This document shows positions 1-24,700 of a DNA stretch of 26,694 nt, in pieces. Every line of letters starts with the position of its first letter. Position 1 is the first letter of the stretch. The translations under genes were made by a program, and so were the position numbers. Source of the stretch: Gammaproteobacteria bacterium. Its GTDB lineage: Bacteria; Pseudomonadota; Gammaproteobacteria; GCA-002705445; GCA-002716945. The stretch covers positions 1 to 26,694 of the forward strand of contig JAYQJW010000005.1 in NCBI GenBank assembly GCA_038142325.1, read 5' to 3'. The notes under the pieces were generated by a model. It was not told the origin of the DNA. It saw only the letters and a list, made by a program, of their open reading frames with translations, and made no database searches.

Positions 1-26
1 TTGCTTATCTTTGTGAGTTTCATTAT
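1..26 (+). repeat. 26-bp terminal direct repeat (circular assembly overlap) with 26669-26694
   Basis: TTGCTTATCTTTGTGAGTTTCATTAT is identical at both ends. Confidence 0.97.
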
Positions 27-1200
27 ACCATCTACCATTTACAACTACACCATTTATTTTCTCACCCCAATATACATTTAGTTCTCCTTGCTTTGTTTTA
101 ATAATGTAATCACCGAACTCTTGTAAAAATCTATCCGCCAGACATTTTACACTCAATAAATCCTCCCATTCTTCTAATGATAGAACTTCTTGATGCTCTG
201 GTATTTCAATACCTTCATCAAAGGGTTTCTTGATCCACCCTACATCAATATTATACTTATCTTTAATAAGGATATTGAGTTCCTCACAAATAGTTTCATA
301 ATCAGTTTCTTTTAATATCATAAACCCATCTTGACAAGGGACAATATCTTCTATTCTGGTTATATCTTTATTGATAAGGTAAGTGATACATTCTTCTTGA
401 ATAATCTTCTCTATGGATTGCGACCATAGACCCATAACTCCTCTTTTTGCTTCGCCCTCGTTTTTCCATTTATGCTTATCTTGTTTCAATACATCTTTTT
501 TAATCTGTGGATTAGCATTATACACAATCTCAATAATCGTTTTCATAAAATCCTCTATTTCTACAAAATCCTTAATTCTATTGTTTTCATTCATAGTAAT
601 ATCTGCCTCCTTAATCCAAGTGCTATATGATCCACCAAACATAAGGATAATTGGTAATTGCTTTGCTGTATCCTTATTACAATTATGATGGTTCATAATA
701 AACTCCCTGTATTTTTTAGGATTTTTCACATATTTAGAAAGATATGTATTATTAAGGTTATGATGCTTACAGATTTCATTAATGATAGTTGGTTGTGCGT
801 TAATCATATCCAGATCCACATAACTACCCTCACAAAAAGTATGTCTGGTTGGTCTGTGAAATATACTTGTTGAAAGATAGTTGTGTGGTTGAGTTCTACC
901 CCATTTATGCTTTGCTAATTTATGTGCTACTTGGAAACGATTTAATTTACGATTATACAATTCCTTAAACTTTATCATCTGTTCTAATTCCGTCTTGTAG
1001 GTTTTACATACACCACCTTCATATCTGGGAACTGATTGGTATGATATACCCATCTCCGCTTTTATAAAACCATAGAGTTTCGCCACATCTATAAGTTCTA
1101 CACATTTCTTCTTCTCAAAGATAGTTGTTCTTACGATAGAAGAGTTTAAAGTCCATTCAAACTTGAAAGGTTGGTTTTCTGTTTCTGGATTTTCCGCCAT
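1..1200 (-). CDS. 5' part of TVpol (family A-derived primase-polymerase)-SF3 helicase fusion; continues at 26668
   Basis: Manual translation from ATG 1200 gives 400 codons with no stop (MAENPETENQ...). Motifs: KWGR, YVDLDMINAQPTI (motif A), AKQLPIILMFGG (motif B), SQSIE, PCQDGFMI (motif C). In frame with 25475..26602 across the junction. Missing from the ORF track. Confidence 0.88.
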   Translation of the reverse strand, partial: MAENPETENQPFKFEWTLNSSIVRTTIFEKKKCVELIDVAKLYGFIKAEMGISYQSVPRYEGGVCKTYKTELEQMIKFKELYNRKLNRFQVAHKLAKHKWGRTQPHNYLSTSIFHRPTRHTFCEGSYVDLDMINAQPTIINEICKHHNLNNTYLSKYVKNPKKYREFIMNHHNCNKDTAKQLPIILMFGGSYSTWIKEADITMNENNRIKDFVEIEDFMKTIIEIVYNANPQIKKDVLKQDKHKWKNEGEAKRGVMGLWSQSIEKIIQEECITYLINKDITRIEDIVPCQDGFMILKETDYETICEELNILIKDKYNIDVGWIKKPFDEGIEIPEHQEVLSLEEWEDLLSVKCLADRFLQEFGDYIIKTKQGELNVYWGEKINGVVVNGRWYNETHKDKQ

Positions 1201-1227
1201 TATAATATAGTAGTATATAATAATATT

Positions 1228-1244
1228 TCTTTATATTGTTTTTT
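1228..1244 (-). promoter_or_regulatory. Putative early promoter motif AAAAAACAATATAAAGA
   Basis: Near-identical copies lie 24-30 nt upstream of six ATGs: 1228, 1600, 2560, 3647, 4056 (minus strand) and 4103 (plus strand). Confidence 0.7.
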
Positions 1245-1308
1245 AATATAAAACTTAAAAATGATTTATATTAAAATATCCAAATATTCCTAAATGTTTT
1301 ATATAAAG

Positions 1309-1572
1309 TTAATGTATTTCTATATATTTTTGTAGAATATCTTGTATAAACTCTGGTTTCTCTTCCTTCAACTTATTCAAATTATCAAAGCATTTTGCTA
1401 CTAATGGTAAGTATATATCATACCTTTTCATATCATCACTATTTAGACCAAACTTGTTCTTATAATAATATGCTTTATTCTTTGCTTTTATTTTATCGCC
1501 ATTTTCAGCATAGTCCTTTCGTTTCCATTCTCTAATATAGGTTCTGCTTTTGGGTTCGTTTTCGTTCTCCAT
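1309..1572 (-). CDS. Small basic hypothetical protein, possibly DNA-binding
   Basis: 87 aa; K/R/Y-rich helix YIREWKRKDY...KNKAYYYKNK; promoter motif upstream. Confidence 0.75.
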   Translation of the reverse strand: MENENEPKSRTYIREWKRKDYAENGDKIKAKNKAYYYKNKFGLNSDDMKRYDIYLPLVAKCFDNLNKLKEEKPEFIQDILQKYIEIH

Positions 1573-1638
1573 TATAATATAAATAGATATATTAATATTT
1601 CTTTATATTATTTTTTATTATATATTTATATGAATTAT

Positions 1639-2535
1639 TCAATTACTATTATCTACACCAAATAGCATCTCATCATTCTCCACCACATAATTACACCCTA
1701 ATAGGTGTCCTAATCCGTCTGCTATTATTGATTGATCCACTAATGCGTTAATATCAACCATATCATATAACATATCATCTTCATTCTCAATCATATCATT
1801 AATATCTTCATCTCTTAATATGTGTGTGCTTTCATTAATATACACATCTCCACTTTCCTCATAATCGGTTCTACAACAAGGACACTTCACATTATTACTA
1901 TTACAGATTGTTTTAAAACAACCCAAGCAAATTGGGTGTCCGCAGAATGTATTTCTCTTTACACAGATGGTTTTGGTTCTTCTCAATATCTTCTTTGTAG
2001 GGTGATTTCCAATAAGTTCCTGACGCTCTGTAATCCCAAACTTCTCCATACATACAGGGCAATCATCAGTATCATATAAAGGTATATCTTCATCGCATTC
2101 CAAATCTGGTTCAGGATATTCAACTTCTTTTGTGTGATAAAATCTACTTTCATCTTTCACAAACCCTAAAATGTATATAGGGTTATAAGAGAATAATTTA
2201 CTCTCATCAACAATTTCATAAATCAAGTATTTTTTAAGGTGATCCTTCCTCTCACATACAAAATAGTAATATCTATCAAATATGAAGAGTTCGTAATTGT
2301 ATCTGGTTTCCAAATCGTCCGCATAGGAAATAGTAATCTTATTCAAGTCAAACTCTCCTTTATCTGGAAAGATAGTATGATAGTTCGCACAAAGATTATC
2401 AACGAAGTAGTTATGGATTTCAGGTTCTCCTAATACAACAAAATCAGGGTCATCATTCTTCGCACCATAAAGGCGGTATTTAAGTGTTGAGTTGAGTTCA
2501 GTAAGTAGCGTAGCAGTTTCAACCATAGTAGTCAT
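1639..2535 (-). CDS. RING-finger (C3HC4) protein, putative E3 ubiquitin ligase
   Basis: CPVC...CGHPICLGC...CPCCR with a long first loop; acidic tail. Confidence 0.8.
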   Translation of the reverse strand: MTTMVETATLLTELNSTLKYRLYGAKNDDPDFVVLGEPEIHNYFVDNLCANYHTIFPDKGEFDLNKITISYADDLETRYNYELFIFDRYYYFVCERKDHLKKYLIYEIVDESKLFSYNPIYILGFVKDESRFYHTKEVEYPEPDLECDEDIPLYDTDDCPVCMEKFGITERQELIGNHPTKKILRRTKTICVKRNTFCGHPICLGCFKTICNSNNVKCPCCRTDYEESGDVYINESTHILRDEDINDMIENEDDMLYDMVDINALVDQSIIADGLGHLLGCNYVVENDEMLFGVDNSN

Positions 2536-2612
2536 ATTATAATAGTATATAACCCTATCTCTTTATATTGTTTTTTCTTATAAATATATAATAATAATTC
2601 ATATAAAAGACC

Positions 2613-2763
2613 AAAAAGGTAGGAAAGTAGCAAACTGGGGCAGTAAATACACAATTTTCTTATTTCATTTTTTAAAAAAAAAAAGAGAACGCATCTTTTT
2701 TATATTTTTGATTTATAAAATCTTTGAAACTACCGCACAGGTTTGCTACTTTTCTACCTTTTT
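2613..2763. repeat. Palindromic element copy A (33-bp imperfect inverted arms, AT-rich core)
   Basis: 2613-2645 matches the reverse complement of 2731-2763 at 28/33 positions; arms contain tandem GTAGNAAA units. Confidence 0.9.
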
Positions 2764-2819
2764 CTACCCTTTATAATAAATATCCTTATAAAGATACTTA
2801 TTATAATATAATGATCCAC

Positions 2820-3617
2820 CTACCATACATAAGTAGGGGTGTTGTTGAATGTATTAGCATATGTATTTATGTGGTCGTTTAATCTTTTTTGTTGCTTTTT
2901 GAAGTTTTCTTTAATTTGCTTATCCATAGTTCCTGAATAATTACAACAAGTTTGGAATACATAATCCGCCCTATCAAGGAACTTTTTATAACATATCTTC
3001 ATTTTTATATCTTTCATATATCCTGCCTTAATTTTGATTGATTTTAGGTTCAATATATCATTAATCATATCCAAAGCATCTTTTTTACATAATCCAAAAA
3101 ACTTTTTCATAAAATACTCTTTGTCCCATCTACCCCATCTTTCTCTGGGATTAATGGGTTCTAAATTAGGAAGCACACTATAATAGAAGAAACATTTAAT
3201 ATATTGCTCCTTCATAGTTGCTACTTTACCCCACAGACATTTCTTCGCCAGTTCCTTACCAATTATGATGTCTGCTCTATAATTAAGGAACTTATTGATA
3301 TACCATACCATATCATAAGGTAATTTGGAAACCATTTCTATTTGAAAGTTCTGGGATCTATCAACCTGAAATGTAAGTGATGATTTATATTTATCACAGG
3401 TGATTACAAGTGAGTTCGCCCATCTCCTCAATTCATCAATATCCTTAATTAATAACTCGTTCCTTGCTGTATTTACAACGCTCATATTGAGTTGGTTGTT
3501 TGCTTGGATCATCATATTAATATGCTTTGGAATGTTCGCCACATTCGGTTTGGATTTACCCAATCTGTTCTCTACAACAGCGTCGCTCTCGGTAGTGTAA
3601 TAATAACCTTTACCCAT
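2820..3617 (-). CDS. Hypothetical protein with possible F-box-like motif
   Basis: 265 aa ORF with promoter motif; SKLPYDMVWYINKFL weakly resembles an F-box core. Confidence 0.7.
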   Translation of the reverse strand: MGKGYYYTTESDAVVENRLGKSKPNVANIPKHINMMIQANNQLNMSVVNTARNELLIKDIDELRRWANSLVITCDKYKSSLTFQVDRSQNFQIEMVSKLPYDMVWYINKFLNYRADIIIGKELAKKCLWGKVATMKEQYIKCFFYYSVLPNLEPINPRERWGRWDKEYFMKKFFGLCKKDALDMINDILNLKSIKIKAGYMKDIKMKICYKKFLDRADYVFQTCCNYSGTMDKQIKENFKKQQKRLNDHINTYANTFNNTPTYVW

Positions 3618-3770
3618 CTGCTTCTATATACTACTATAACAGCGTATCTTTATATTGTTTTTTCTTATAAATATATAAGAATAAATCATATAAAAGACCA
3701 AATCCAGTATAATAGAATAAGAAAAAATATGATATAATACCCATTACAGGCATTATATCATAAGATACTT

Positions 3771-4031
3771 TTACATACATTTCCACAACTCACCATACTC
3801 TTTTCTTAAACGAATAGGATAAGTCCAAGTATTCTTATAAGGTTTGATCCCCATAGCGTCCATAATCTCCCTGAACTCTTTTCTATCCATATACCCTTCT
3901 GGTCTATGGTGTTCTAAAATATGCTTACCTCTGTAATCATAAATGTTCGCCATCTCTGGTTTTCTACCATTATAACGAGGGGCAGGTTGAAAGAACTTCT
4001 CACACAAAGCAATATCGGTCTGTAATACCAT
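3771..4031 (-). CDS. Hypothetical protein
   Basis: 86 aa; promoter variant AAAAACCATTTAAAGA upstream; hairpin ATGATATAAT..ATTATATCAT downstream. Confidence 0.7.
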   Translation of the reverse strand: MVLQTDIALCEKFFQPAPRYNGRKPEMANIYDYRGKHILEHHRPEGYMDRKEFREIMDAMGIKPYKNTWTYPIRLRKEYGELWKCM

Positions 4032-4149
4032 TTTATAAATATCTATATCAACTCCTCTTTAAATGGTTTTTATACGAATTATTAATATAAATGATTTATA
4101 CGAAAAAACAATATAAAGGGACACTTCTATATATAATTATAATAGCAAG

Positions 4150-4536
4150 ATGAGTGGTAGGACGATTTCTATGACTATGACCGAGAAGCGAATGTTAGAG
4201 CAGAAGGCGAAAAGTGGTTGGCGTTGTTTCTTCATTATGAGGGACAATTATGATGACCTATGTGGTTATGTAGCACAACTACAAAATAGAAACAGAGCAA
4301 CCAGAGAGCAACTGCGAAATGGTGATGATGTGGATATTGATTTTTTGAAACAGCAGTTTATAGAAATGTATGATAAACTGAAAGAATATACAGAATGTCC
4401 TGTATGTATGGAAACCCTTACCAAAGATAATATTGAAGTCCCCAAATGCGGTCATACAATCTGTAAAACCTGTATTGAAAGGATTAAACAAGATCCAGAA
4501 CCGAAATGTCCCAATTGTAGAAAGAAATATTATTAA
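4150..4536 (+). CDS. Coiled-coil plus C-terminal RING-finger (C3HC4) protein
   Basis: CPVCMETL...CGHTICKTC...CPNCR. Confidence 0.88.
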   Translation: MSGRTISMTMTEKRMLEQKAKSGWRCFFIMRDNYDDLCGYVAQLQNRNRATREQLRNGDDVDIDFLKQQFIEMYDKLKEYTECPVCMETLTKDNIEVPKCGHTICKTCIERIKQDPEPKCPNCRKKYY

Positions 4537-6622: not shown

Positions 6623-7990
6623 ATGAGTGCTTATCCACCGCCTAATGAGAACTTACCAATTTTTAATCCATTAGATTTTCAACGACCTAATATTCCTCTT
6701 ACTATCAACGATGCGAAGGATTATTTTTTAGAATATCCAACAGCACAAGGACAGGAAACATTAAGCAGTATAATAGTAAATGGATCATCAACTTTTAATG
6801 ATGTAGCAGATGTAAATGATACACTAACAATTAATCAACCAACATCATCTCTAAATGCCGTTCAAATAGTAAGTGATAATCCAGGTTATAGTTTAACCGC
6901 CACTTCAAGAACCAATCCAGGAACAGCAGGATTATTAACCATAACAGGTTCATCGTCAGTAGATAAAGAAAACCCAATAGTAGCGGATACGGATAGTGTT
7001 ATATCCACATCTATAAACGGACAAGATGATACAGGAAACTTATGTTTAACTGGTAAATCATCTACAAATGGAAATGGAATTAGAATATTAGCAGGAAGCG
7101 GTGTTTATAATTACGGACCATTTAAATTATTACAAGGAGCAGGTAATCAAAATGCCGAAATTGTTTTTAGTGATTTAACTACACAAACAACAGCATTTAA
7201 TAGCAGTTTATATGCCCCAATTAATTCACCAGTTTTTACAGGTGTTCCAGAAGCACCCACACCAACACAAGGAGATAATAGCACAAAATTAGCAACAACG
7301 AATTATGTAGATACAGCAGTAGGAGGTGGTGGTTCAGTTCATTATACTTATACTGAATTATTTACTAATGGATCATCAGGAACAAGTGTAAGTATAACTA
7401 TACCTGCTAATTGTATTAGATGTGATGTAATGACTTTTGGTAGGGGAGGTTCAGCAGGGCAAACGAATGCTTATGGTTCTTATGCGGTGAATGGAGGTAG
7501 TGGAGGTGGTGCTTCTATGGTATGTGCTTATGGAGTTCCTATCAATTCACTCTCTACATTAGACCTATATTGGACTGCTGGGACTACGAGTTCAGGAATA
7601 GCATATGTAATGTTAAATAGTGCTTTACCATTAGGTTCTGCTTATAATGGTGGAGATGGTGGAGCAGGACAAAGTAGCGGAACAGGAGCAAAAGGAATAG
7701 GTGCTACGGCAGTAGCAACTCAACCAAAGTTCCCCAATAGTTCTTTTGACGGAACAGACGGACAAGATGGTGGATCATCAGGATTTCCTAATAGTAATGT
7801 CCCACACGGCGGTAATCAACCTGTTAATGTAGGAAAGCAGGAAATTATTGGTGGATCACAGGGCGGACCAGGCATAGGACAGAAATATTCTGCTTTTAAT
7901 GACCCTTCTGTATCACCATCATTTTATTATAATGCTTCACCACATTTAAACGCTGGTAGTTGTCTTATAACTTGGTATATTAAACAATAG
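6623..7990 (+). CDS. Fibre/spike-like virion protein 2 with phage tail-fibre repeat and Gly-rich domain
   Basis: Paralogous N-terminus; YAPINSPVFTGVPEAPTPTQGDNSTKLATTNYV matches a tailed-phage fibre motif; Gly-rich C-terminus. Confidence 0.78.
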   Translation: MSAYPPPNENLPIFNPLDFQRPNIPLTINDAKDYFLEYPTAQGQETLSSIIVNGSSTFNDVADVNDTLTINQPTSSLNAVQIVSDNPGYSLTATSRTNPGTAGLLTITGSSSVDKENPIVADTDSVISTSINGQDDTGNLCLTGKSSTNGNGIRILAGSGVYNYGPFKLLQGAGNQNAEIVFSDLTTQTTAFNSSLYAPINSPVFTGVPEAPTPTQGDNSTKLATTNYVDTAVGGGGSVHYTYTELFTNGSSGTSVSITIPANCIRCDVMTFGRGGSAGQTNAYGSYAVNGGSGGGASMVCAYGVPINSLSTLDLYWTAGTTSSGIAYVMLNSALPLGSAYNGGDGGAGQSSGTGAKGIGATAVATQPKFPNSSFDGTDGQDGGSSGFPNSNVPHGGNQPVNVGKQEIIGGSQGGPGIGQKYSAFNDPSVSPSFYYNASPHLNAGSCLITWYIKQ

Positions 7991-11819: not shown

Positions 11820-14135
11820 ATGCCGAGATTGAAAAAAAGCGGTGATGAAGTTGTAGCACCTGTATTTGGTGAAAGTGAATTAATCCTACCTGAATATTTT
11901 GTAATTCCTTTTGGAAAGCAAGGAAAATATAAATTGGTTAATCCTACCAGTCAAGAACGAGGATTAAGCACCAGAGGAAAAAAGAAAGCGTTGAAATTAA
12001 CAAGAAAACCAGTAAAAAATGCGGTTTTGGTTGAGGATATGAGTGATCCAATACCTTTGGAACTATTTAGCAAGAAAGATAGAACCATTATTAGAAATCA
12101 CTACAAGTTAGTAAAACAATTTGAAAACAGACCAGCGAAAGATGTTCCACAATTACAACATACCAAACCAAAAGAAAGAGGAAGACCTGAAACACTACCC
12201 AAAAATATAGAAATCAATAAAGCAAGAAAAGAACCACCAGCACCAGAACCAAAGAAAAGAGGAAGACCTACAAAATACCAAAGCGAAGAAGAAAAGAAAC
12301 AAAAGAAAAGAGAACAAACATTAGCATCTAATAAGCGAAAAAGAGAAGAAAAAAAGAAGGCAAAAGAAGCACAAGCAGAAGGAGGAAACATTATTACTGA
12401 TGTAATTAGAAATGTAAAGAACTATGGTATTAGAAAAGGTTTCACAGAAACCATACAAGATAAAGCACATCAAGCAAAAGCAGTCATAACAGGTAATATT
12501 ACACAATTATCACCAAGATTGAAAGAATTATTAAACCAATATGGATCATCAACTATTAAAGGAATAAGTATTAGGCGTAGTCCAGTATCAGGATTACTAA
12601 CAGGTGCTTTATCCTTCTTCTCTGGTGGTAAGTTTGGTGAAAGACAAAAGGAGCGAGAGTTTGATGAACTATTCCATTTATTTATGGTATTCAACCTTAA
12701 TGATGGTAAGCAAATGCTATTAGAGAAAAATGAGAGAATAAATATGGAGTTAAACCCCAAGAAAAGACCAAAAACAGAAGAAGAAATAGTCAGGGTTTTC
12801 CCTATTGATACTCTGGATCTTAATGGAGTATTAGGTAAAACCAAAGCATATATGGGTGATAAGAAGTTCTTTGGTTATTCAGCAAAAGACAACAACTGCC
12901 AGGACTTCATATTGGCGGTTATGAATGCTAATGATATAGGAGATGCTAATGATAGAAAGTTTGTAAAGCAAGATACAAAGGAATTATTTAGGGATTTACC
13001 TTATTTAAGAAAGTTGAGTAATACTTTAACCAATATAGGAGCAAGGGCAAATGTATTTATGGAAGGTGGAGATATTCATAAAGAATATCAAGACGAAGTT
13101 AAAGCACTATTGAATAAGAAAATGAATGCTTCTATTAAAGGTAGAAAGATGAATGAATTAACTGATAAATATAAAATGCTATGTTATAGTAAATCTATGG
13201 AAGGCAAGGGATTACATAGTGAGTATGCGAGTGATGATGAAGAAATTGAAGGTGATGGTATGGAGGAAAGTATAGATTTTGACGATATTAAATGGGGATC
13301 ATTCACCAAACAATATGAGAGATTTAAGAACCAACATAAAAACTCTAATATAAAAGATTTAGAAGATTTCGCCAGAATGCTATTGAAAGACCCCAGTAAG
13401 TATAATAAAACTACAATTAAAAGGGCAAGATTTTATTTAAATGTATTGCTTCCAAAGAAAAATAAAATCTCTGGTAATAGTATAAATATGGTGAAGAAAT
13501 TAACCAAAAAGCAGATGAAGGCATTAGAGAAGGAAACTGATGGAGAAGGCATTTATTTAAGTGGCGTTGGTGGAGATGGATTATATGCTGGTGAAGGTCT
13601 ATATGCTGGTGAAGGTATGTATGCTGGAAGTGGTTGTGCTATATGTGGTTCTGGAATGGAAGGTGGAGCAATCTACCACCCTATTTTAGCGGAAATTGAT
13701 GGCGGAAATATCTTTAAAAGTGCTGGAAGATGGTTCAGGAAAGCAGGAGATACTATTAACAAGGCAGTCATTAAACCAGTAGCAAAAGAGTTTAGTAAAA
13801 AAGGAACTATACAAAGGGGAGTAAATGACGGACTTAAAGAAGCATTCAAAAAGGGTGGTATTATGGAAAAAGCAGGAAGAACCGCTTTTAGAGAAGGTGT
13901 CCCAGTATTAACTGGTGCTTTAACTGGTGCTTTGGGTGGATTAGCAGGTGGTCCTGGTGGTGCTATGTTAGGGTCTTATGCTGGTTCAAAAGGAGGTCAA
14001 GAATTAGTCAAAATGAGTGGTGTAGGTGTTAAGAAAAGAAGTGCTTGGATAGACCAAGTTAAAGCAGTCCAAAAAAGAGATGGTATTTCTTACAAAGAAG
14101 CACTCAAAGTAGCATCAAGGGAACGAAAAAACTAA
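11820..14135 (+). CDS. Putative core polyprotein: AT-hooks, permuted papain-like domain, multiple adenain sites, Gly-zipper, basic tail
   Basis: ERGRP and KKRGRP; FHL...LEKN...YSAKDNNCQDF; MEGG, MEGKG, IEGDG, IDGG, MSGVG; GALTGALGGLAGG. Confidence 0.75.
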   Translation: MPRLKKSGDEVVAPVFGESELILPEYFVIPFGKQGKYKLVNPTSQERGLSTRGKKKALKLTRKPVKNAVLVEDMSDPIPLELFSKKDRTIIRNHYKLVKQFENRPAKDVPQLQHTKPKERGRPETLPKNIEINKARKEPPAPEPKKRGRPTKYQSEEEKKQKKREQTLASNKRKREEKKKAKEAQAEGGNIITDVIRNVKNYGIRKGFTETIQDKAHQAKAVITGNITQLSPRLKELLNQYGSSTIKGISIRRSPVSGLLTGALSFFSGGKFGERQKEREFDELFHLFMVFNLNDGKQMLLEKNERINMELNPKKRPKTEEEIVRVFPIDTLDLNGVLGKTKAYMGDKKFFGYSAKDNNCQDFILAVMNANDIGDANDRKFVKQDTKELFRDLPYLRKLSNTLTNIGARANVFMEGGDIHKEYQDEVKALLNKKMNASIKGRKMNELTDKYKMLCYSKSMEGKGLHSEYASDDEEIEGDGMEESIDFDDIKWGSFTKQYERFKNQHKNSNIKDLEDFARMLLKDPSKYNKTTIKRARFYLNVLLPKKNKISGNSINMVKKLTKKQMKALEKETDGEGIYLSGVGGDGLYAGEGLYAGEGMYAGSGCAICGSGMEGGAIYHPILAEIDGGNIFKSAGRWFRKAGDTINKAVIKPVAKEFSKKGTIQRGVNDGLKEAFKKGGIMEKAGRTAFREGVPVLTGALTGALGGLAGGPGGAMLGSYAGSKGGQELVKMSGVGVKKRSAWIDQVKAVQKRDGISYKEALKVASRERKN

Positions 14136-14180
14136 ATGGGGCGAGTATGCCCTCATCGTCCGTTAATATAATTGAGGGCA
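14126..14180 (+). promoter_or_regulatory. Predicted -1 programmed ribosomal frameshift signal (slippery heptamer plus H-type pseudoknot)
   Basis: A AAA AAC at 14126-14132, in frame just before TAA; 6-nt spacer. Stem 1 GGGCGA(14139-44)/TCGTCC(14156-61); stem 2 TGCCCTCA(14148-55)/TGAGGGCA(14173-80). The -1 frame is open into ORF 14147. Confidence 0.78.
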
Positions 14181-15484
14181 AAGGTGTAGGGAGCATAGAC
14201 AATTATTATCTAAAAATCCATTTTACAGATGCTAATAAGGATTATAGAAATCTAACAATACATACCCCAACGGAAGCACAGATGAAAACATTTCTAACCA
14301 AATTGAAACCAGTATTAAACAAATATAAAATAAGTGTTGATTTAAGTAAATTAAAAATTGGATCATCAAGATATAAAGACCAAGAGTTCTTTATAGAATG
14401 TTGTGAATGGTATGATATGCCTGAATATAAACAAAATCCAGCACTATTGAATACCAAGCATATAGTATTACAAATACAGAAAGGAAACCAAACTGAACCA
14501 TTCTTAACCGATATTAGCAAAATATTAGGTGAAAACATAAATAAAAAAACCTTTGGTTGGTTTCCAGAAAGACCTAATAAAATACTTAACCCTTATAAGG
14601 GTAAGATGTGGGAAAGTAAAGGACATATGCCGAAGTATCCTATTTACATATTATCCAAAGGTAGATGGGAAAGACGATTAACCAGTAAATATTTGGAATG
14701 GTGTGGAATACCATATAAGATTGTTGTTGAACCACAAGAATACGAAAAATACGCCGAACATATTGATAAGAGTAAAATATTGATTTTACCAAAGAAATAT
14801 CTGGGTAAAGACCAAGGAGGAATACCAGCAAGAAACTTCATAATGGATCACGCCAGAAGCAAAAGTAAAACTGGACGGCACTGGATATTGGACGATAATA
14901 TTGGTGATTGGAAAAGATTAAACAATAATGAAAGAGTTGTAGTCAAAGGTGGTTGTGTGTTTAAGGTAGTAGAAGATTATACAGATAGATATGTTGATGT
15001 GAAAATGAGCGGACATAACTACACTATGTTTGGTATGAACCCATCATTAGATCCAATAACAAAAAATACGAGGGTTTATTCTTCTATATTATTAAGCAAC
15101 GATATACCTGATAAAATAGGTGAAGGTTGGAGAGGTAAATATAATGAAGATACTGATTTATCCTTACGATTATTAAAGGCAGGATTTCCTACCATATTGT
15201 TTAATTGTATTATGGCGAATAAAGAAACTACATTAACAAATAAAGGAGGTAATGAGAAAATCTATAAAGAGAAAGATGGTCTTTATAAAAAGGCAAAGTC
15301 ATTAGCAGACCAGCACCCAGATGTCGCCAAAGTTAGTGAGCGTTATGGAAGAGTTCATCATATAGTAGATTATTCTGGATTTAAAAACCTACCATTAAAA
15401 TTAAAACCAGGTTTAAAAATACCTAAAAAAGTAAATAATTATGGAATGAAATTAGTTGATAAAGTCAAAAACCCTATACCATAA
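14147..15484 (+). CDS. TET/JBP-associated (TAGT/GREB1-like) GT-A glycosyltransferase with N-terminal accessory domain
   Basis: YPIYILSKGR, ARNFIMDH, HWILDDNI, TRVYSSIL, WRGKYNEDTDLSLRLLKAG, KGGN, YGRVHHIVDY. Confidence 0.85.
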   Translation: MPSSSVNIIEGKGVGSIDNYYLKIHFTDANKDYRNLTIHTPTEAQMKTFLTKLKPVLNKYKISVDLSKLKIGSSRYKDQEFFIECCEWYDMPEYKQNPALLNTKHIVLQIQKGNQTEPFLTDISKILGENINKKTFGWFPERPNKILNPYKGKMWESKGHMPKYPIYILSKGRWERRLTSKYLEWCGIPYKIVVEPQEYEKYAEHIDKSKILILPKKYLGKDQGGIPARNFIMDHARSKSKTGRHWILDDNIGDWKRLNNNERVVVKGGCVFKVVEDYTDRYVDVKMSGHNYTMFGMNPSLDPITKNTRVYSSILLSNDIPDKIGEGWRGKYNEDTDLSLRLLKAGFPTILFNCIMANKETTLTNKGGNEKIYKEKDGLYKKAKSLADQHPDVAKVSERYGRVHHIVDYSGFKNLPLKLKPGLKIPKKVNNYGMKLVDKVKNPIP

Positions 15485-17174: not shown

Positions 17175-17308
17175 CAAAGTAGCAAACTTGTGCGGTAATT
17201 ACAAAGATTTTATAAATAATTTTTTAATAATTAATTATGATTATTAAAAAATGAAAAATGTTTTTAAGAAAATATCTAAAACACCGCCCCACTTTGCTAC
17301 TTTTCTAC
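17171..17308. repeat. Palindromic element copy B, inverted relative to copy A
   Basis: Arms 17171-17196 and 17283-17308 match at 22/26. 17171-17217 matches the reverse complement of 2711-2757 at 43/47. Confidence 0.9.
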
Positions 17309-17920
17309 CATTTTCATACCTACTGGTATTTTGGTAAGGTCTAATCTATTACCTTCTTCTTTCTCTACGATGGGTTCTAAATCAATATCTATGGCGTTCC
17401 TTTTCTTTGGATCACTACTACGGAAGAAGTGCTTTAATATGTATTCATTCTTCTTAAAATCAACACTTTCATTTAAATCATCAAACATATCCAAGAATGT
17501 AGATACATCTTGGTATAAATCCTTACTTCTATATTTACTACTATTTATGAAGTGTAATAAAGCACAACAAAACCAACCACAGGCATTATTCATAAGGGAT
17601 TGAATATCCTTTGTGGTTTCTGGAATATTCTTACCAATTGTTCTCTCAACTGCTTTCTTAACATCACTCGGTTTTCCAACCCCATAAGGATCAAAGTAAA
17701 TACCTTCTGTTTTACCATTTGGATACTTATTAATCTGTAAGCAGACCCAGTGTGTTCCACCATTCTTTTTACCATCTTCGTCATACTCGTCTTCTAAATT
17801 AATTATGTATGCTTTGTTAAACTCTAACTTGTTAGGCAGTTCATCTTTAAAGCAAATATCCGCTAATGGTATTTCCATTCTTTTACAAAGTTCCCTTAAT
17901 GCGACATCTGTTAAACTCAT
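17297..17920 (-). CDS. Adenain-like (clan CE) cysteine maturation protease
   Basis: YIINL, GTHWV (His), YFDPYG (Asp), IQSLMNNACGWFC (Gln, Cys). Confidence 0.93.
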   Translation of the reverse strand: MSLTDVALRELCKRMEIPLADICFKDELPNKLEFNKAYIINLEDEYDEDGKKNGGTHWVCLQINKYPNGKTEGIYFDPYGVGKPSDVKKAVERTIGKNIPETTKDIQSLMNNACGWFCCALLHFINSSKYRSKDLYQDVSTFLDMFDDLNESVDFKKNEYILKHFFRSSDPKKRNAIDIDLEPIVEKEEGNRLDLTKIPVGMKMVEK

Positions 17921-17967: not shown

Positions 17968-19058
17968 TTATTTTTGCCCTGCTTTATGAATGTGTTGATA
18001 TTGTGGTGGAAGAGTTGCTCCAAATTGGAAATTAGCAGAATAGGGTTGAGATTGAAGAGCAGGTGGTAATACTCTTTGTCCCATTCCTCCAATTTGTCCT
18101 CCACTTGCCCTAAATCCTCGTCCAGCATATCCACAGCAACCTCTACCTTGACGACCAGCATATATTCCTTCACCACTTCCTCCAATCCATCTCATACTTC
18201 CTCTATTACCTAACATATTACTACTAAATTGGGATCTATCTGGTTGGTCTATGGTAGTAGGTCTATTCATCTGTGCTTGTCTTGCTTGGTCTGCTAATGC
18301 TTGTAAAGTCATATAATCCAACCCTGCTAAACCTTGTCGTCCCATATATCCATAGTTAGTTCCCATTAGTTCGTTCATTTGCCCTAAACTTCTTTCATAA
18401 AGTTCTTGTCCTTCTAATGAGTTAGGGAAACTTGCTCTTGCTGGGACATTTGTAGTTCCTACATTTGTAGTTTTCTTTCGTTTGGGTGCTAATGCGTCAT
18501 CACCTCTTTCTACTAATTTGTCTTTCTGTTTCTTTGCTTCTTTTCCTGCTAATTTTCCTAATGCCTTTCCTGCCTGTTGCCCTGCTATTCCTGCTAATGG
18601 GACTAATTCAGGTTGTCCTATCGCCATAGCACCAGCGGACAAAGCACCAGATAAAAGTTCAGGGGCATAATCAACACCCGTATCAATTAATTTGTCTGCT
18701 CCTTGACTGATGCTAATTTCAATCCTGCTCTTCCTGCTTCTTTTGCTATTGGTAGTGCTACTTTTCCAACTGCTTTTGCTCCTTTGGAAATTGCTTTACC
18801 TATATCGTCAAAAATACCCTCACCTTCCATTCCTCCTTGTGCTTGTTGATTTTGTAATATTTCCTCTGGTGATAGTGCTAATTCAACACCTTTACCTCTA
18901 CCAAATGAACGAGAAATAGAAGAATAGTGTGATGGATCAACTATCATACAATAACCCTTACCGCTCATTCTGGGTTTAATTCTAACTCTATGTCCGTTTC
19001 TCAACCTACTAATTTGTTTTGGTGAAGCACCAAACTTGATGACTTTGAACTCTTCCAT
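17968..19058 (-). CDS. Putative core/membrane-active protein; one gene split by a 1-nt frame break near 18710
   Basis: ORFs 18687..19058 and 17968..18642 join as ..LKLA(I)SQGADKLIDTGVDYAPELLSGALSAGA..; sites MSGKG and MEGEG; amphipathic helix. Confidence 0.7.
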
Positions 19059-22655: not shown

Positions 22656-22996
22656 TTACTTTCTCATAACTCTCCCTAATTTTTTATAGGGTCTAAAAGG
22701 CATCGCTATAAAATGTCCGTCCCTATGGAATACTTTATCACCCTTTTGGTAGTAAAATCCATATCGCCAGGGTGCGTTTTAGATGGTGAAAACTTCATAA
22801 ACTCACCTCTCATTCTTCTACCAATTTCTTCATTTTTTCTTGCTATAACTGGATCACCAGTAGGATTGTAGATTGCTCCACCAGTCATAATTGTATTAGG
22901 AACTTGACTACCTCCAAAATAGAATGGTGCTTGAATATCGCTCGTCTGTGGTCTTACACCAGGACTAACAACAACAGGAAAATATCCGCTATTCAT
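22656..22996 (-). CDS. Small putative structural protein; as sequenced ends at 22706, probably extends to 22656
   Basis: PFYFGGSQVP, MTGGA. One extra A near 22745 gives ..DFTTKKGDKVFHRDGHFIAMPFRPYKKLGRVMRK*. Confidence 0.65.
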
Positions 22997-23016: not shown

Positions 23017-24700
23017 TTAAAAACCCATTTCTGTTAATTCTAAAAGTAATTCTTTTACTTGTGATTTTGGTATAACACCTTTATTACTCAATTTCATTAT
23101 TGTTGATTTAAACTTTCTTACTAAATCTTTATTATCATTACCAGACATAATTTGCCCCTTCATAATCTCAAACTCATCAATTTCCTTATCAATATCACTC
23201 TTTTTTGGTGCTGGTAAAATCAATCTGTCTTTAAGGTTGCTCTTCTCTGCTAATTTATTGAGATAGACCTTTTCACCATCATCTAAATCTTGTAAATCCT
23301 CAAAATCAGGCATTTCATTATTGGTAATTCCTCTTATGATGTGTCCCAATTTTCTTGAAACTCTCTCACTTGGAAAATCCTTAATTGATGATCCAGCAGG
23401 TCTTTTTACTGCTATTACATTATTTTCTAAACGATGCTTATTAATTATATACTTACCAAAAGGAACATATTTAGGTGTAGGTGCTACACCACCAAACCAA
23501 TCAATAGTAGGTTTTTTCTGGACTTTCTTTTGGACTTTTCTAACCAATCCCTTACCTTCTATTTTTCCTAATGCCTTTTCATCTGCTATATCACTAAACT
23601 CTTCTCTCCAATTTTGGTTCAACCAACCAATTAAATTATTTTTACTTCCTTGTTCTAATTGCTTACTTACCCTTAATCCATTATCTCTGGCGAACTTAAT
23701 TAGATCCGCTTTTGTGAATAATTTAAAATTACCAGGTAAAGGAACATCACCAGGATACTTTAATTGACTTCCACTTCGTCCAGGAACAAGTAATTCACCA
23801 CTTTCATCAGTAGGTAGTTGGACTAACACTTGTTCTAATTGTCCCACCAAGTTTTCGGTTTCTGGTTGAAGTTGAAATAAACTAATACCTTTTACCAGAT
23901 GGTCGTTCATTCCTCCCTTATCCTTTGCTCTCGCATACATAAAAGCACCATCTAACCATCTTTTCATAACTATTGATGTAGGTAATTCACCACCAATATC
24001 ATTTGCTAATTTCAATCCAGTATTTACAGCGTCGGCATCAATAAATCTACCTTGTGAAGTTAAATCCGCTACTGCTCCTCTAATAAGTGGATATAGTCCC
24101 ATTAATCTCATTACTGATTGTTGGAAACGACCACTAACACCTCGTTCTACACCTAACCCATTATAAGCGTCATAAGCACTCTTCATAAATGATTGTAATT
24201 CACTTACAGAAGGGAACGCTTTTACCATATCCCTACTATTGAGTTCTACATTTCGTCCTGATGTTTGTTGTAATCCTGTTTCAATTCCATTCACATTCGC
24301 CTGTGTATTCATATAATTCACCAAAAAGGGTTCAAAAATCTCCGCATAAATACCTAATCTATATTTTTGGTTTAAGTTCCTTGTTAATAGCATCGGCACT
24401 CTGGGCGTAGAATAGCATTTGTTTTGGTGTTAATTCTTGGACGATTTTGTTTGCTTCTTTTCCGTCCGTAATCTCGCTTAACTTTGACCTAACTTCTACT
24501 TTCAATCTCTCAATATCCGCTAATTTCTCTTCGGTTGTTCTAAAATCACTTGGTTCTACTGGTAGTTGTCCTGTTCGTTTATAGACCTTATTTGCCTGTA
24601 AATTAACATCATCTAACCTTGCTCGTAGATCCAAGTTTGCTAAATACTGCTGTCTAAACTTATCAGCGTCGCTGGGGTTTCTGTTCGGTTGTCCGCTCAT
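23017..24700 (-). CDS. Conserved Polinton/PLV-type protein; one gene split by a 1-nt frame break near 24365
   Basis: Overlapping ORFs 24359..24700 and 23017..24399 join as ..AINKELKPKYRLGIYAEIF..; IEGKG site; C-terminal KGQIMSGNDN motif. Confidence 0.72.

Follow-up and report, generated by a model that had tools for sequence, protein, structure and literature searches.

We analysed a 26,694-nt stretch of DNA (the whole stretch is called the window below) in which a 771-aa open reading frame (ORF) for a putative core polyprotein is followed, in the -1 frame, by a 445-aa ORF for a TET-associated glycosyltransferase (TAGT). The arrangement suggests that programmed -1 ribosomal frameshifting (PRF) makes a fusion of the core polyprotein with the enzyme that is cut at an adenain-type site, and we consider this reading likely. 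Ribosomes on the 771-aa ORF would meet the slippery heptamer A_AAA_AAC directly before the stop codon, with an H-type pseudoknot 6 nt downstream. A fraction of them would slip back one base and then translate a short linker (LNGASMPSSSVNIIEGKG) and the TAGT ORF behind it, for a product of ~1221 aa. The linker motif, (M/I)-E-G-x-G, recurs in the putative virion proteins of the virus, and an adenain-like protease would free the enzyme there. The cassette of heptamer, stop codon, pseudoknot and linker appears to be modular, and a distant relative pairs it with a DNA-methylase-like cargo. Slippage in vivo and its rate, linker cleavage and the enzyme's entry into the capsid are steps that we infer; packaging into the capsid and release there would be reasonable in the context of a polyprotein.

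All features of the junction lie on the + strand. The core ORF occupies 11820..14135 in the 0 frame and ends with CGA (14124-26) AAA AAC TAA (14133-35). The heptamer A AAA AAC (14126..14132) is in X XXY YYZ phase, its A6 run covering 14126-14131. The 0-frame stop TAA (14133..14135) abuts the heptamer and supplies the first 3 nt of the 6-nt spacer (14133-14138). In the predicted pseudoknot, stem 1 (S1; 14139..14161) pairs GGGCGA (14139-44) with UCGUCC (14156-61) through 6 bp, one of them G-U, with a stacking energy of -11.6 kcal/mol. The span of S1 encloses the 3-nt loop 1 (14145-47) and the 5' strand of stem 2 (S2; 14148..14180), in which UGCCCUCA (14148-55) pairs with UGAGGGCA (14173-80) through 8 Watson-Crick bp (-17.7 kcal/mol). 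Loop 3 has 11 nt (14162-72). A -1 slip reads CTA AAT GGG GCG AGT before it reaches the ATG of the 445-aa ORF (14147..15484), which holds an N-terminal domain and the TAGT domain, and the sum of 771+5+445 gives 1221 aa. The -1-frame linker, L N G A S M P S S S V N I I E G K G, is encoded by 14132..14185, with IEGK/G at 14171-14185. The transframe peptide would be ...KN/LNGASMPSSSVNIIEGKG..., from a translated junction of ...KN/LNGASMPSSSVNIIEGKGVGSI..., and the expected transframe tryptic peptide of the window type is (K)NLNGASMPSSSVNIIEGK.

The initial annotation of this DNA had described an in-phase A AAA AAC at the end of the 771-aa ORF, an H-type pseudoknot with these stems, loops and spacer, and a -1 slip into ORF 14147 to give ~1221 aa. 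The heptamer can be read directly in the window, all coordinates of the modelled pseudoknot match and the translation agrees. It had also named a DNA-base glycosyltransferase, an adenain-type site IEGKG and a missing upstream promoter motif, each of which is borne out by the data given below. Its overall claim, a canonical -1 PRF that fuses the polyprotein ORF to the TAGT ORF, stood up to every computational test that was run.

We scanned both strands of the window for H-type pseudoknots with perfect stems of 5-10 bp, loop 1 of 1-6 nt, loop 2 of 0-2 nt, loop 3 of 3-30 nt and a spacer of 5-9 nt, using Turner stacking energies. The junction pseudoknot, with a summed stacking of -29.3 kcal/mol, was the second strongest among 53,208 anchor positions and was equalled or bettered at 10 of them, which represent 2 distinct sites. 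The only other equal-scoring site lies at 7623-7670 (+) inside a Gly-rich 455-aa ORF (6623..7990), with an S1 of 10 bp, an S2 of 9 bp and -29.5 kcal/mol. The predicted structure would place a stable stimulator at the canonical spacing of 6 nt, within the usual ~5-9 nt. The nested minimum free energy fold of 14133-14185 did not stand out (-14.5 kcal/mol, z -1.7; 14 of 200 shuffled sequences did at least as well), and nested folding is blind to pseudoknots. As isolated hairpins, S1 and S2 gave -8.3 and -13.1 kcal/mol, and an Rfam scan of 13900-14400 gave no match at E <= 1. The stems are built from rare codons: CCC makes up 8% of Pro codons, TCG 1.4% and TCC 8.6% of Ser codons and GGC 3.5% of Gly codons, in a genome with 24% GC at third codon positions. 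The product of the synonymous frequencies over the 6 stem codons (range 1.4-8.6%) is 2.3e-7. An in-phase slippery heptamer is in itself common: the 8026 codons contain 32, and in 3 of 28 ORFs one lies <=3 codons from the stop. One example is at 23017-23026 (-), where a 458-aa ORF ends with the in-phase heptamer in G GGT TTT TAA. Its -1 frame closes after 5 codons and the next ORF (22706..22996), which is in the -1 frame, has a TATA motif of its own, so we take this site as a chance example.

Stop-codon readthrough was ruled out, as the 0 frame beyond TAA closes after 11 codons. The stop codon is also part of a TAAATG, which resembles the late initiator of poxviruses; the 0-frame ATG opens an 11-codon ORF (14136-14171) that overlaps the start of TAGT. 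The distant relative L186, described below, has TAACTG instead, and that ATG is not conserved.

The linker ends in a candidate protease site. The adenain consensus is (M/I/L)XGG-X or (M/I/L)XGX-G, and I/M-E-G-x-G fits the second type. The pattern [IM]EG[KDE]G[LMIV] occurs 6 times in 7999 aa of the window, against a rough expectation of ~0.01 from residue frequencies: twice in the core protein and once each in TAGT (residues 9-13) and in the 123-aa, 100-aa and 458-aa ORFs. Because the motif recurs in putative virion proteins and fits the type-2 consensus, the enzyme would be released by the protease of the virus itself. A 207-aa ORF on the opposite strand (17297..17920, -) encodes a putative adenain-like cysteine protease, which weakly matches PF00770 (Peptidase_C5) at E 6.8e-4 with 19.8 bits, below the cut-off of 21.3, and PF22102 at E 6.1e-5, also below its cut-off of 27. 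It is presumed to be the enzyme that acts on the (M/I)xGx-G sites.

The identity of the cargo is well supported by Pfam. The TAGT profile PF20691 matched the 445-aa ORF at E 5.9e-33 with 115 bits (cut-off 27.5), over positions 1-205 of 205 in the profile and residues 164-368 of the protein (nt 14636-15250). The N-terminal ~150 aa form a domain without an assigned function. Among the 27 ORFs inspected, 24 have a TATA motif <=25 nt 5' of the ATG; it is absent at TAGT and at two other ORFs. Those two (17968.. and 23017..) are each the downstream half of a gene that relatives encode as a single ORF, of 357 aa in L006 and of 555 aa in L174. Among the intact genes of the window, TAGT alone lacks the motif. 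Since the other two ORFs without a TATA motif are halves of broken genes, a 'promoter-less' ORF is otherwise, in this genome, the continuation of an upstream frame.

The frame break is shared by close relatives. Eight other public contigs keep it, six from IMG/VR (L001-L006) and two from metagenomes (L017 and L018), and in every contig the -1 frame is open across the site. The core proteins of L001-L006 share 77-93% identity with that of the window. In L002 and L017 the core gene ends with AGA AAA AAA AAC TAA, an A9 run, and heptamer and stop are still in phase. Across this TAGT clade, the 55-nt signal differs only at 14164 and 14169 in loop 3 and at 14173 in the terminal pair of S2, an A-U pair that is lost in the L003 group. 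The stretch from the A run through S1 is invariant in the clade, and all 6 pairs of S1 are invariant in 7 aligned sequences, including L186. The signal of L006 is 94.5% identical to that of the window, compared to 72% over the last 300 nt of the core gene, and the homologous pseudoknot in L006 ranks in the top 0.017% of its locus.

These comparisons bear on a caution in the initial annotation, namely that homopolymer errors elsewhere in the contig might extend to the junction. The caution was justified for two other genes and does not hold at the junction, where eight contigs are concordant. The two genes show homopolymer-linked frame breaks: at 24359-24393 (-), ORFs of 113 and 458 aa correspond to a single 555-aa ORF in L174, with an extra A in ccaaaaata near 24363, and at 18627-18687 (-), ORFs of 123 and 219 aa correspond to a single 357-aa ORF in L006. 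Both are indels of the homopolymer type and could be either assembly errors or real mutations. By extension, nothing might be programmed at the junction, which would be a chance juxtaposition or an assembly error that conceals a true A7 (a constitutive fusion) or A5. We consider this most improbable, given the identical frame relation in the eight contigs, the A9 variant that keeps the stop in frame, the AAC TAA retained in L186 and the joint rarity of the pseudoknot and the codon usage. Because the eight contigs share the frame break, a sequencing error is, for practical purposes, excluded.

The decisive evidence, in our view, comes from L186, which was found by an alignment-based scan with 20 core-protein homologues. 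Its core homologue has 717 aa, is 35-51% identical to that of the window in three segments and ends with AGA AAA AAC TAA. The spacer of 6 nt, the complete S1, the 3-nt loop 1, a 5-bp core of S2 (CUUCA/UGAAG) and the 11-nt loop 3 are all present, and this pseudoknot ranks in the top 0.07% of anchors in its locus. Two pairs of S2 are changed on both sides (G-C to A-U and C-G to U-A) and one position is mismatched. In a covariation test of S2, 13 of 500 column shuffles equalled the observed value and slid controls gave 0, with L186 as the single source of divergent data. The -1 frame of L186 reads L T G A I T S S S V N R I E G S G, which keeps the protease motif, and then enters at its ATG a 213-aa ORF; the linker precedes MRKIKLL, and the corresponding transframe peptide would be LTGAITSSSVNR. 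The -1 frame is closed by a TGA 10 nt before the heptamer and has no ATG before the end of the linker. Relative to the window, the linker has an in-frame 3-nt deletion and the changes ATG to ATA and CCC to ACT, and the remaining differences are mainly at synonymous third positions (GTT to GTA, GAG to GAA, GGC to GGT). Nucleotide identity between the window and L186 is 78% in the cassette, 64% in the last 105 nt of the core gene and 54% in the preceding 105 nt, against a baseline of 52% for the unrelated cargo. The 213-aa ORF matches PF00145 (C-5 DNA methylase) at E 8.6e-5 with 22.5 bits, just above the cut-off of 22. Five genes of L186 have a TATA motif; the ORF after the core gene has none. 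The initial annotation had proposed a search for covarying signals in relatives, possibly with other cargo enzymes, and L186, which keeps the signal and carries a DNA-methylase-like gene, answers to that prediction. A conserved and translatable linker that bears a protease site, has no start codon and leads from a conserved core gene into a swapped cargo is hard to explain without frameshifting.

Three core homologues with other gene arrangements served as negative controls. In L187 the core homologue ends with CGT CGT TAA and is followed by an AT-rich intergenic region with no tandem gene; in L024 it ends with AAG AAG AAA TAA and TAGT is elsewhere. Neither has a heptamer or a GC-rich element. 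L027 is syntenic (core homologue at E 1e-59), with TAGT 19 nt downstream in the +1 frame behind its own 'gaatatatATG', and has no linker and no signal. Judged from these loci, the signal accompanies a promoter-less -1 ORF behind the core gene: the two lineages with such an ORF have it, and the three without one lack it.

Transcriptional slippage, in which a viral or helper RNA polymerase adds one A on the A6-A9 run in some mRNAs, would give the same product. It is the mechanism behind P3N-PIPO of potyviruses and P-gene editing in paramyxoviruses. The A run is conserved and is lengthened to A9 in L002 and L017, and one extra A would give exactly the required frame. Slippage of this kind needs no downstream structure, yet the junction has a pseudoknot within the top 0.02% at 6-nt spacing, rare codons and compensatory changes; the final C of the heptamer and its phase are also conserved and are unneeded for a plain A run. 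RNA-library data were available as contigs only (Logan), in which DNA carry-over is possible and rare variants are dropped. One 275-nt RNA-library contig of the L002-type variant bridges the junction, which is weak evidence for the frameshift reading, and it shows no indel, which is weak evidence against slippage. Four metatranscriptome runs contained 6-14% of the sampled words, in low-depth contigs that leave parts of the core ORF uncovered and whose depth cannot rank genes. Another RNA-library contig begins at 14129; strains diverge just upstream of the junction, so this start is not readable as the start of a transcript. We consider transcriptional slippage very unlikely.

Several observations weigh against programmed frameshifting, and some of them favour two separate genes. 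The stems are constant across the TAGT clade and show no covariation there, and the junction lies in a 44-nt run identical to L006 that is only the third longest in 6.8 kb of 83% overall identity. The covariation comes from a single divergent sequence, L186, in which S2 is mismatched once, and S2 is one pair short in the L003 group. The A6 run of L186 is known from a single assembly. In-phase heptamers at ORF ends arise by chance in this genome, and AAAAAAC is also the first 7 nt of an early-promoter-like motif, AAAAAACAATATAAAG, that lies upstream of six ORFs. The -1 ORF starts exactly at an ATG in all 9 TAGT-clade contigs and in P0002 (TAGT 68% identical, with the same MPSSS..IEGKG start), as an independently initiated gene would. 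Leaders with GG sites are also found on TAGT homologues that are not behind a core gene (MSSIHLCGG in L019 and MSYENVLNGG in P0021); therefore, the leader alone does not require a fusion. No natural fusion of core and TAGT in one frame turned up: the 46 proteins of 424-1350 aa that matched the C-terminal part of the core protein (residues 480-771) all lacked PF20691, and TAGT residues 1-170 gave no match among proteins of 780-2225 aa, which is weak evidence by the standards of the tool. The support for frameshifting comes from sequence and comparison, and the RNA data are contigs that settle no transcript structure.

If TAGT were a gene of its own, it would be translated from the ATG at 14147, either on a transcript that begins at an unrecognised promoter within the final part of the core gene, or by ribosomes that terminate at the TAA 11 nt upstream and reinitiate. 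In that case the GC-rich structure would regulate translation or transcript ends, and the heptamer would be a by-product of the Lys/Asn-rich C-terminus or of an AAAAAAC promoter-like element. Apart from the conserved ATG, the chance heptamers and the shared 7 nt described above, this explanation draws on the purine at -3, on the short cleavable leaders of stand-alone homologues and on promoters that do exist inside upstream coding sequence (ORF 11061; L025). It is harder to reconcile with the absence of both a TATA and an early motif upstream of TAGT, unlike 24 of the 27 ORFs, and with the position of the UG of the start codon inside the 8-bp S2, which would be expected to hinder scanning initiation. 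Reinitiation in caliciviruses and influenza B uses an upstream motif; here no conserved upstream motif is visible, and the 40 nt upstream vary between lineages. Separate genes would also leave unexplained the in-phase heptamer behind changed preceding codons, the absence of heptamer and GC-rich element from the three core homologues without a -1 cargo and, in L186, the compensatory S2 pairs and a conserved -1 linker that is open, has the protease motif but no ATG, and differs by a 3-nt indel in frame and by mostly synonymous changes. We therefore regard two separate genes as unlikely, if less so than slippage by the polymerase. The conserved ATG at 14147 may nevertheless reflect some additional independent initiation, which could coexist with frameshifting in the TAGT clade.

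Wider searches for the cassette gave no further lineage. A scan of IMG/VR with the junction pattern returned 17 stretches, of which 7 were the known clade or L186 and the other 10 were unrelated (GC 31-43%) and lacked the 3' strand of S1. A looser S1/linker pattern returned 25 stretches, 18 of them new; these had no heptamer and were judged unrelated, 17 lying on GC-rich contigs (53-56%) and one (L225) on a contig of 36% GC. The L186 core protein, used as a query, matched no contig but its own. The contig of P0002 is absent from IMG/VR and was not among the results of a single metagenome scan. Distant matches to the core domain IDFDDIKWGSF...KRARFYLNVL (L007-L012 and L181-L200) are in other architectures and are uninformative for the junction.

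The relatives of TAGT show how this enzyme is made in other genomes. We found 6294 homologues at E <= 1e-5 among 8000 scored candidates. The family is named for its TET/JBP hydroxylase partner, which produces the 5-hydroxymethylcytosine substrate; no TET/JBP family member was found among the 20 larger window ORFs, which were those scanned against Pfam. In phage loci (L013-L016), TAGT is a stand-alone gene of 250-310 aa. An alignment of 15 homologues placed the starts of six stand-alone forms (P0004, P0005, L023, L024, L025 and L027) at or after the residue that follows IEGKG. In four in-frame polyprotein forms (P0009, P0028, P0043 and L020), a small N-terminal domain is joined by a Gly-Gly linker at exactly this place, and some forms have more domains at the C-terminal end, DUF5872-like ones or the protease itself, attached by additional GG linkers. 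In-frame TAGT polyproteins were seen in other contigs resembling those of polinton-like viruses (PLVs), namely L020 (3827..6598) and L025, and in P0009, P0021, P0028, P0043, P0091 and P0105. Joined to TAGT by GG linkers, they carry an MPYxIK small domain, DUF5872-like ends (…YSPNELAINILW) or an adenain-like protease at the C-terminus. The gene behind TAGT in L025 overlaps the end of TAGT, and its TATATA motif sits within the TAGT coding sequence. A Pfam scan of P0150 did not explain its precomputed PF26363 label. Making TAGT as part of a cleavable polyprotein appears to be common in this virus group, and the window clade would do so by way of a frame change.

The name 'core' is a guess at the function of this polyprotein, which is rich in glycine and lysine and has conserved adenain-type sites. 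The 771-aa protein has AT-hook-like RGRP repeats, a folded domain of the H...NC type, a region rich in Gly and, at the C-terminus, a basic helix hairpin. Motifs of the forms (M/I/L)xGG-x or (M/I/L)xGx-G are conserved at residues 414, 460, 476, 613, 626 and 732 in the alignment of 20 homologues. Each of the six sites is kept in 13-20 of the 20, with IDGG at 626 in all 20 and MSGVG at 732 in 16, and by this pattern the protein clearly reads as a polyprotein. Its C-terminus differs among homologues (RKN, RKK, RRR, RRK, GKK, KGH and GKN). An AlphaFold2 model had a mean predicted local distance difference test (pLDDT) score of 52 and was mostly disordered, with folded parts at ~230-390, 490-545 and 741-771; a Foldseek search of the PDB with this model gave no match at E <= 0.001. 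In the H...NC domain (12660-12990, residues ~280-390), a His motif (ELFHLF) and an NC motif (DNNCQDF) lie ~75 residues apart and are kept in homologues, and L186 lacks the domain. Its best Foldseek match, a lead only, was the H-box/NC protein 2A of Aichivirus A (E 0.47, TM 0.44), and the domain may act on lipids as part of a virion protein, in the manner of LRAT/PLAAT. In the C-terminal part (13750-14132, residues 626-771), IDGG is followed by NIFKSAGRWFRKAG..., an amphipathic basic stretch, and MSGV/G by the basic 33-aa C-terminal helix hairpin (pLDDT 74-84). The order of the IDGG/NIFKSAGRWF... site and the amphipathic stretch behind it, together with the hairpin, may resemble adenovirus protein VI and its C-terminal cofactor peptide.

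The window itself is a circular element, with a 26-nt overlap of its ends and a D5-type primase-helicase ORF that crosses the join. Pfam matches include an A32-type packaging ATPase (PF04665, E 1e-12), the D5_N primase-helicase (E 3.7e-11) and RING-finger proteins above their cut-offs, and an ORF of the size of a tyrosine recombinase is present. For the predicted 593-aa major capsid protein (MCP), the nearest Atlas clusters are Preplasmiviricota with scores of 0.97-0.98, which serve as leads only, recognition being below the benchmark of the tool. The MCP had no match among 50,697 phage records, and neither the MCP nor the core profile matched any PDB entry by sequence. From the gene content, the MCP clusters and the lack of a phage MCP match, the window is assigned as a circular genome of ~26.7 kb from a polinton-like or virophage-like virus (Preplasmiviricota). 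It is contig C5 of a 9-contig, 1.1-Mb assembly labelled as a prokaryote genome (completeness 98.46). The GC content is 29-33% in all 9 contigs and the PLV genes are confined to C5, so C5 is probably a viral contig that was mis-binned by composition. A Shine-Dalgarno (SD)-like role for the GGGG before the ATG, suggested by the prokaryote label, was ruled out: the other genes have no SD-like sequence, RING and D5/A32 hallmarks are present and the MCP has no phage match. In 16 DNA-labelled runs from 5 studies (estuary, sea, marine water), 45-95% of the sampled words of a 3.9-kb region were present. Two promoter-like classes divide the window into 1-4536 and the rest. Six ORFs (1..1200, 1309.., 1639.., 2820.., 3771.. 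and 4150..) have AAAAA(A/C)CAATATAAAG ~30-50 nt 5' of the ATG, and most of the remaining ORFs have TATATA immediately 5' of it. The two classes may correspond to early and late genes.

The junction most resembles those of retroviruses. The gag-pro site of mouse mammary tumour virus (MMTV) combines A AAA AAC with an H-type pseudoknot in a retroviral -1 PRF. Retroviral gag-pro and pro-pol sites and the window have in common the heptamer, a spacer of 6-7 nt, a compact H-type pseudoknot, a 0-frame stop near the slip site and, as proposed for the window, a structural polyprotein that is extended by an enzyme and resolved by the viral protease. In contrast to retroviruses, the virus of the window is a double-stranded DNA (dsDNA) virus that is transcribed from DNA, the cargo is TAGT (or methylase-like in L186) rather than protease or reverse transcriptase, the adenain-like protease comes from a separate ORF on the other strand, and the -1 ORF starts with an ATG in the TAGT clade; the window case is also known from sequence alone. 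Tailed dsDNA phages use -1 PRF in the tail assembly chaperone G/GT and in the T7 capsid protein 10A/10B, which similarly gives a structural module of a dsDNA virus a minor, C-terminally extended isoform at a fixed ratio. They differ in using bacterial ribosomes, mostly without such a pseudoknot, and in adding a structural extension, not an enzyme, with no protease-site linker. Adenoviruses share with the window the adenain-type motif in Gly/Lys-rich putative internal proteins and a putative adenain-like protease gene, although the window protease matches Peptidase_C5 only below the curated cut-off and its cleavage is predicted from the motif. We know of no case in which adenoviruses join precursors to enzymes by frameshifting. 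The in-frame polyproteins of other PLVs (P0009, P0028, P0043, P0021, P0105 and L020) likewise combine TAGT with an N-terminal domain through Gly-Gly linkers, fusing it to small virion-type domains (DUF5872/DUF5754-like) or to the protease. Those fusions are constitutive, whereas the join in the window needs a frame change, by which the enzyme would be sub-stoichiometric.

To our knowledge, programmed -1 frameshifting is characteristic of RNA viruses, retroelements and phages and is essentially undocumented for eukaryotic dsDNA viruses. Literature searches, which covered articles without their supplementary files, found no paper that pairs a TET-associated glycosyltransferase with a virophage, and only RNA-virus papers on polyproteins and cleavage sites. 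They also found no description of frameshifting in virophages or PLVs, the nearest item being a speculative remark on adintovirus pentons in the accessible text of one paper (PMC11071296). That text hypothesises, from KnotInFrame, a -1 PRF near the 3' end of Penton ORFs that gives a virion protein an alternative C-terminus (PMC11071296). Like the present case, it is a computational prediction for eukaryotic dsDNA viruses related to Preplasmiviricota; it differs in concerning a penton gene, cysteine-rich alternative tails instead of an enzyme and adintoviruses of animals instead of PLVs, and the accessible portion reports no covariation or cargo swap (PMC11071296).

Collectively, these results suggest that the junction most likely represents a canonical mechanism in an unprecedented viral context, with modular cargo. 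A broader proposal is that PLVs of this group carry, where their internal polyprotein gene ends, a portable frameshift cassette that loads interchangeable DNA-modification enzymes sub-stoichiometrically into the virion, where they are freed by an adenain-like protease. On this proposal, the logic of Gag-Pol would have evolved independently in a eukaryotic dsDNA virus, and the particle would bring its own genome-marking enzyme into the giant-virus factory; we advance it tentatively, with less than even confidence. If frameshifting at this junction is real, small DNA viruses of protists would use recoding to fix the ratio of a structural polyprotein to an enzyme. The signal would be a compact and modular one that could be searched for in other Preplasmiviricota, and it would explain 'promoter-less' genes that are now annotated as ordinary ORFs. 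It would also suggest that virion-associated DNA glycosylation or methylation plays a part in the arms race between PLVs, giant viruses and their hosts.

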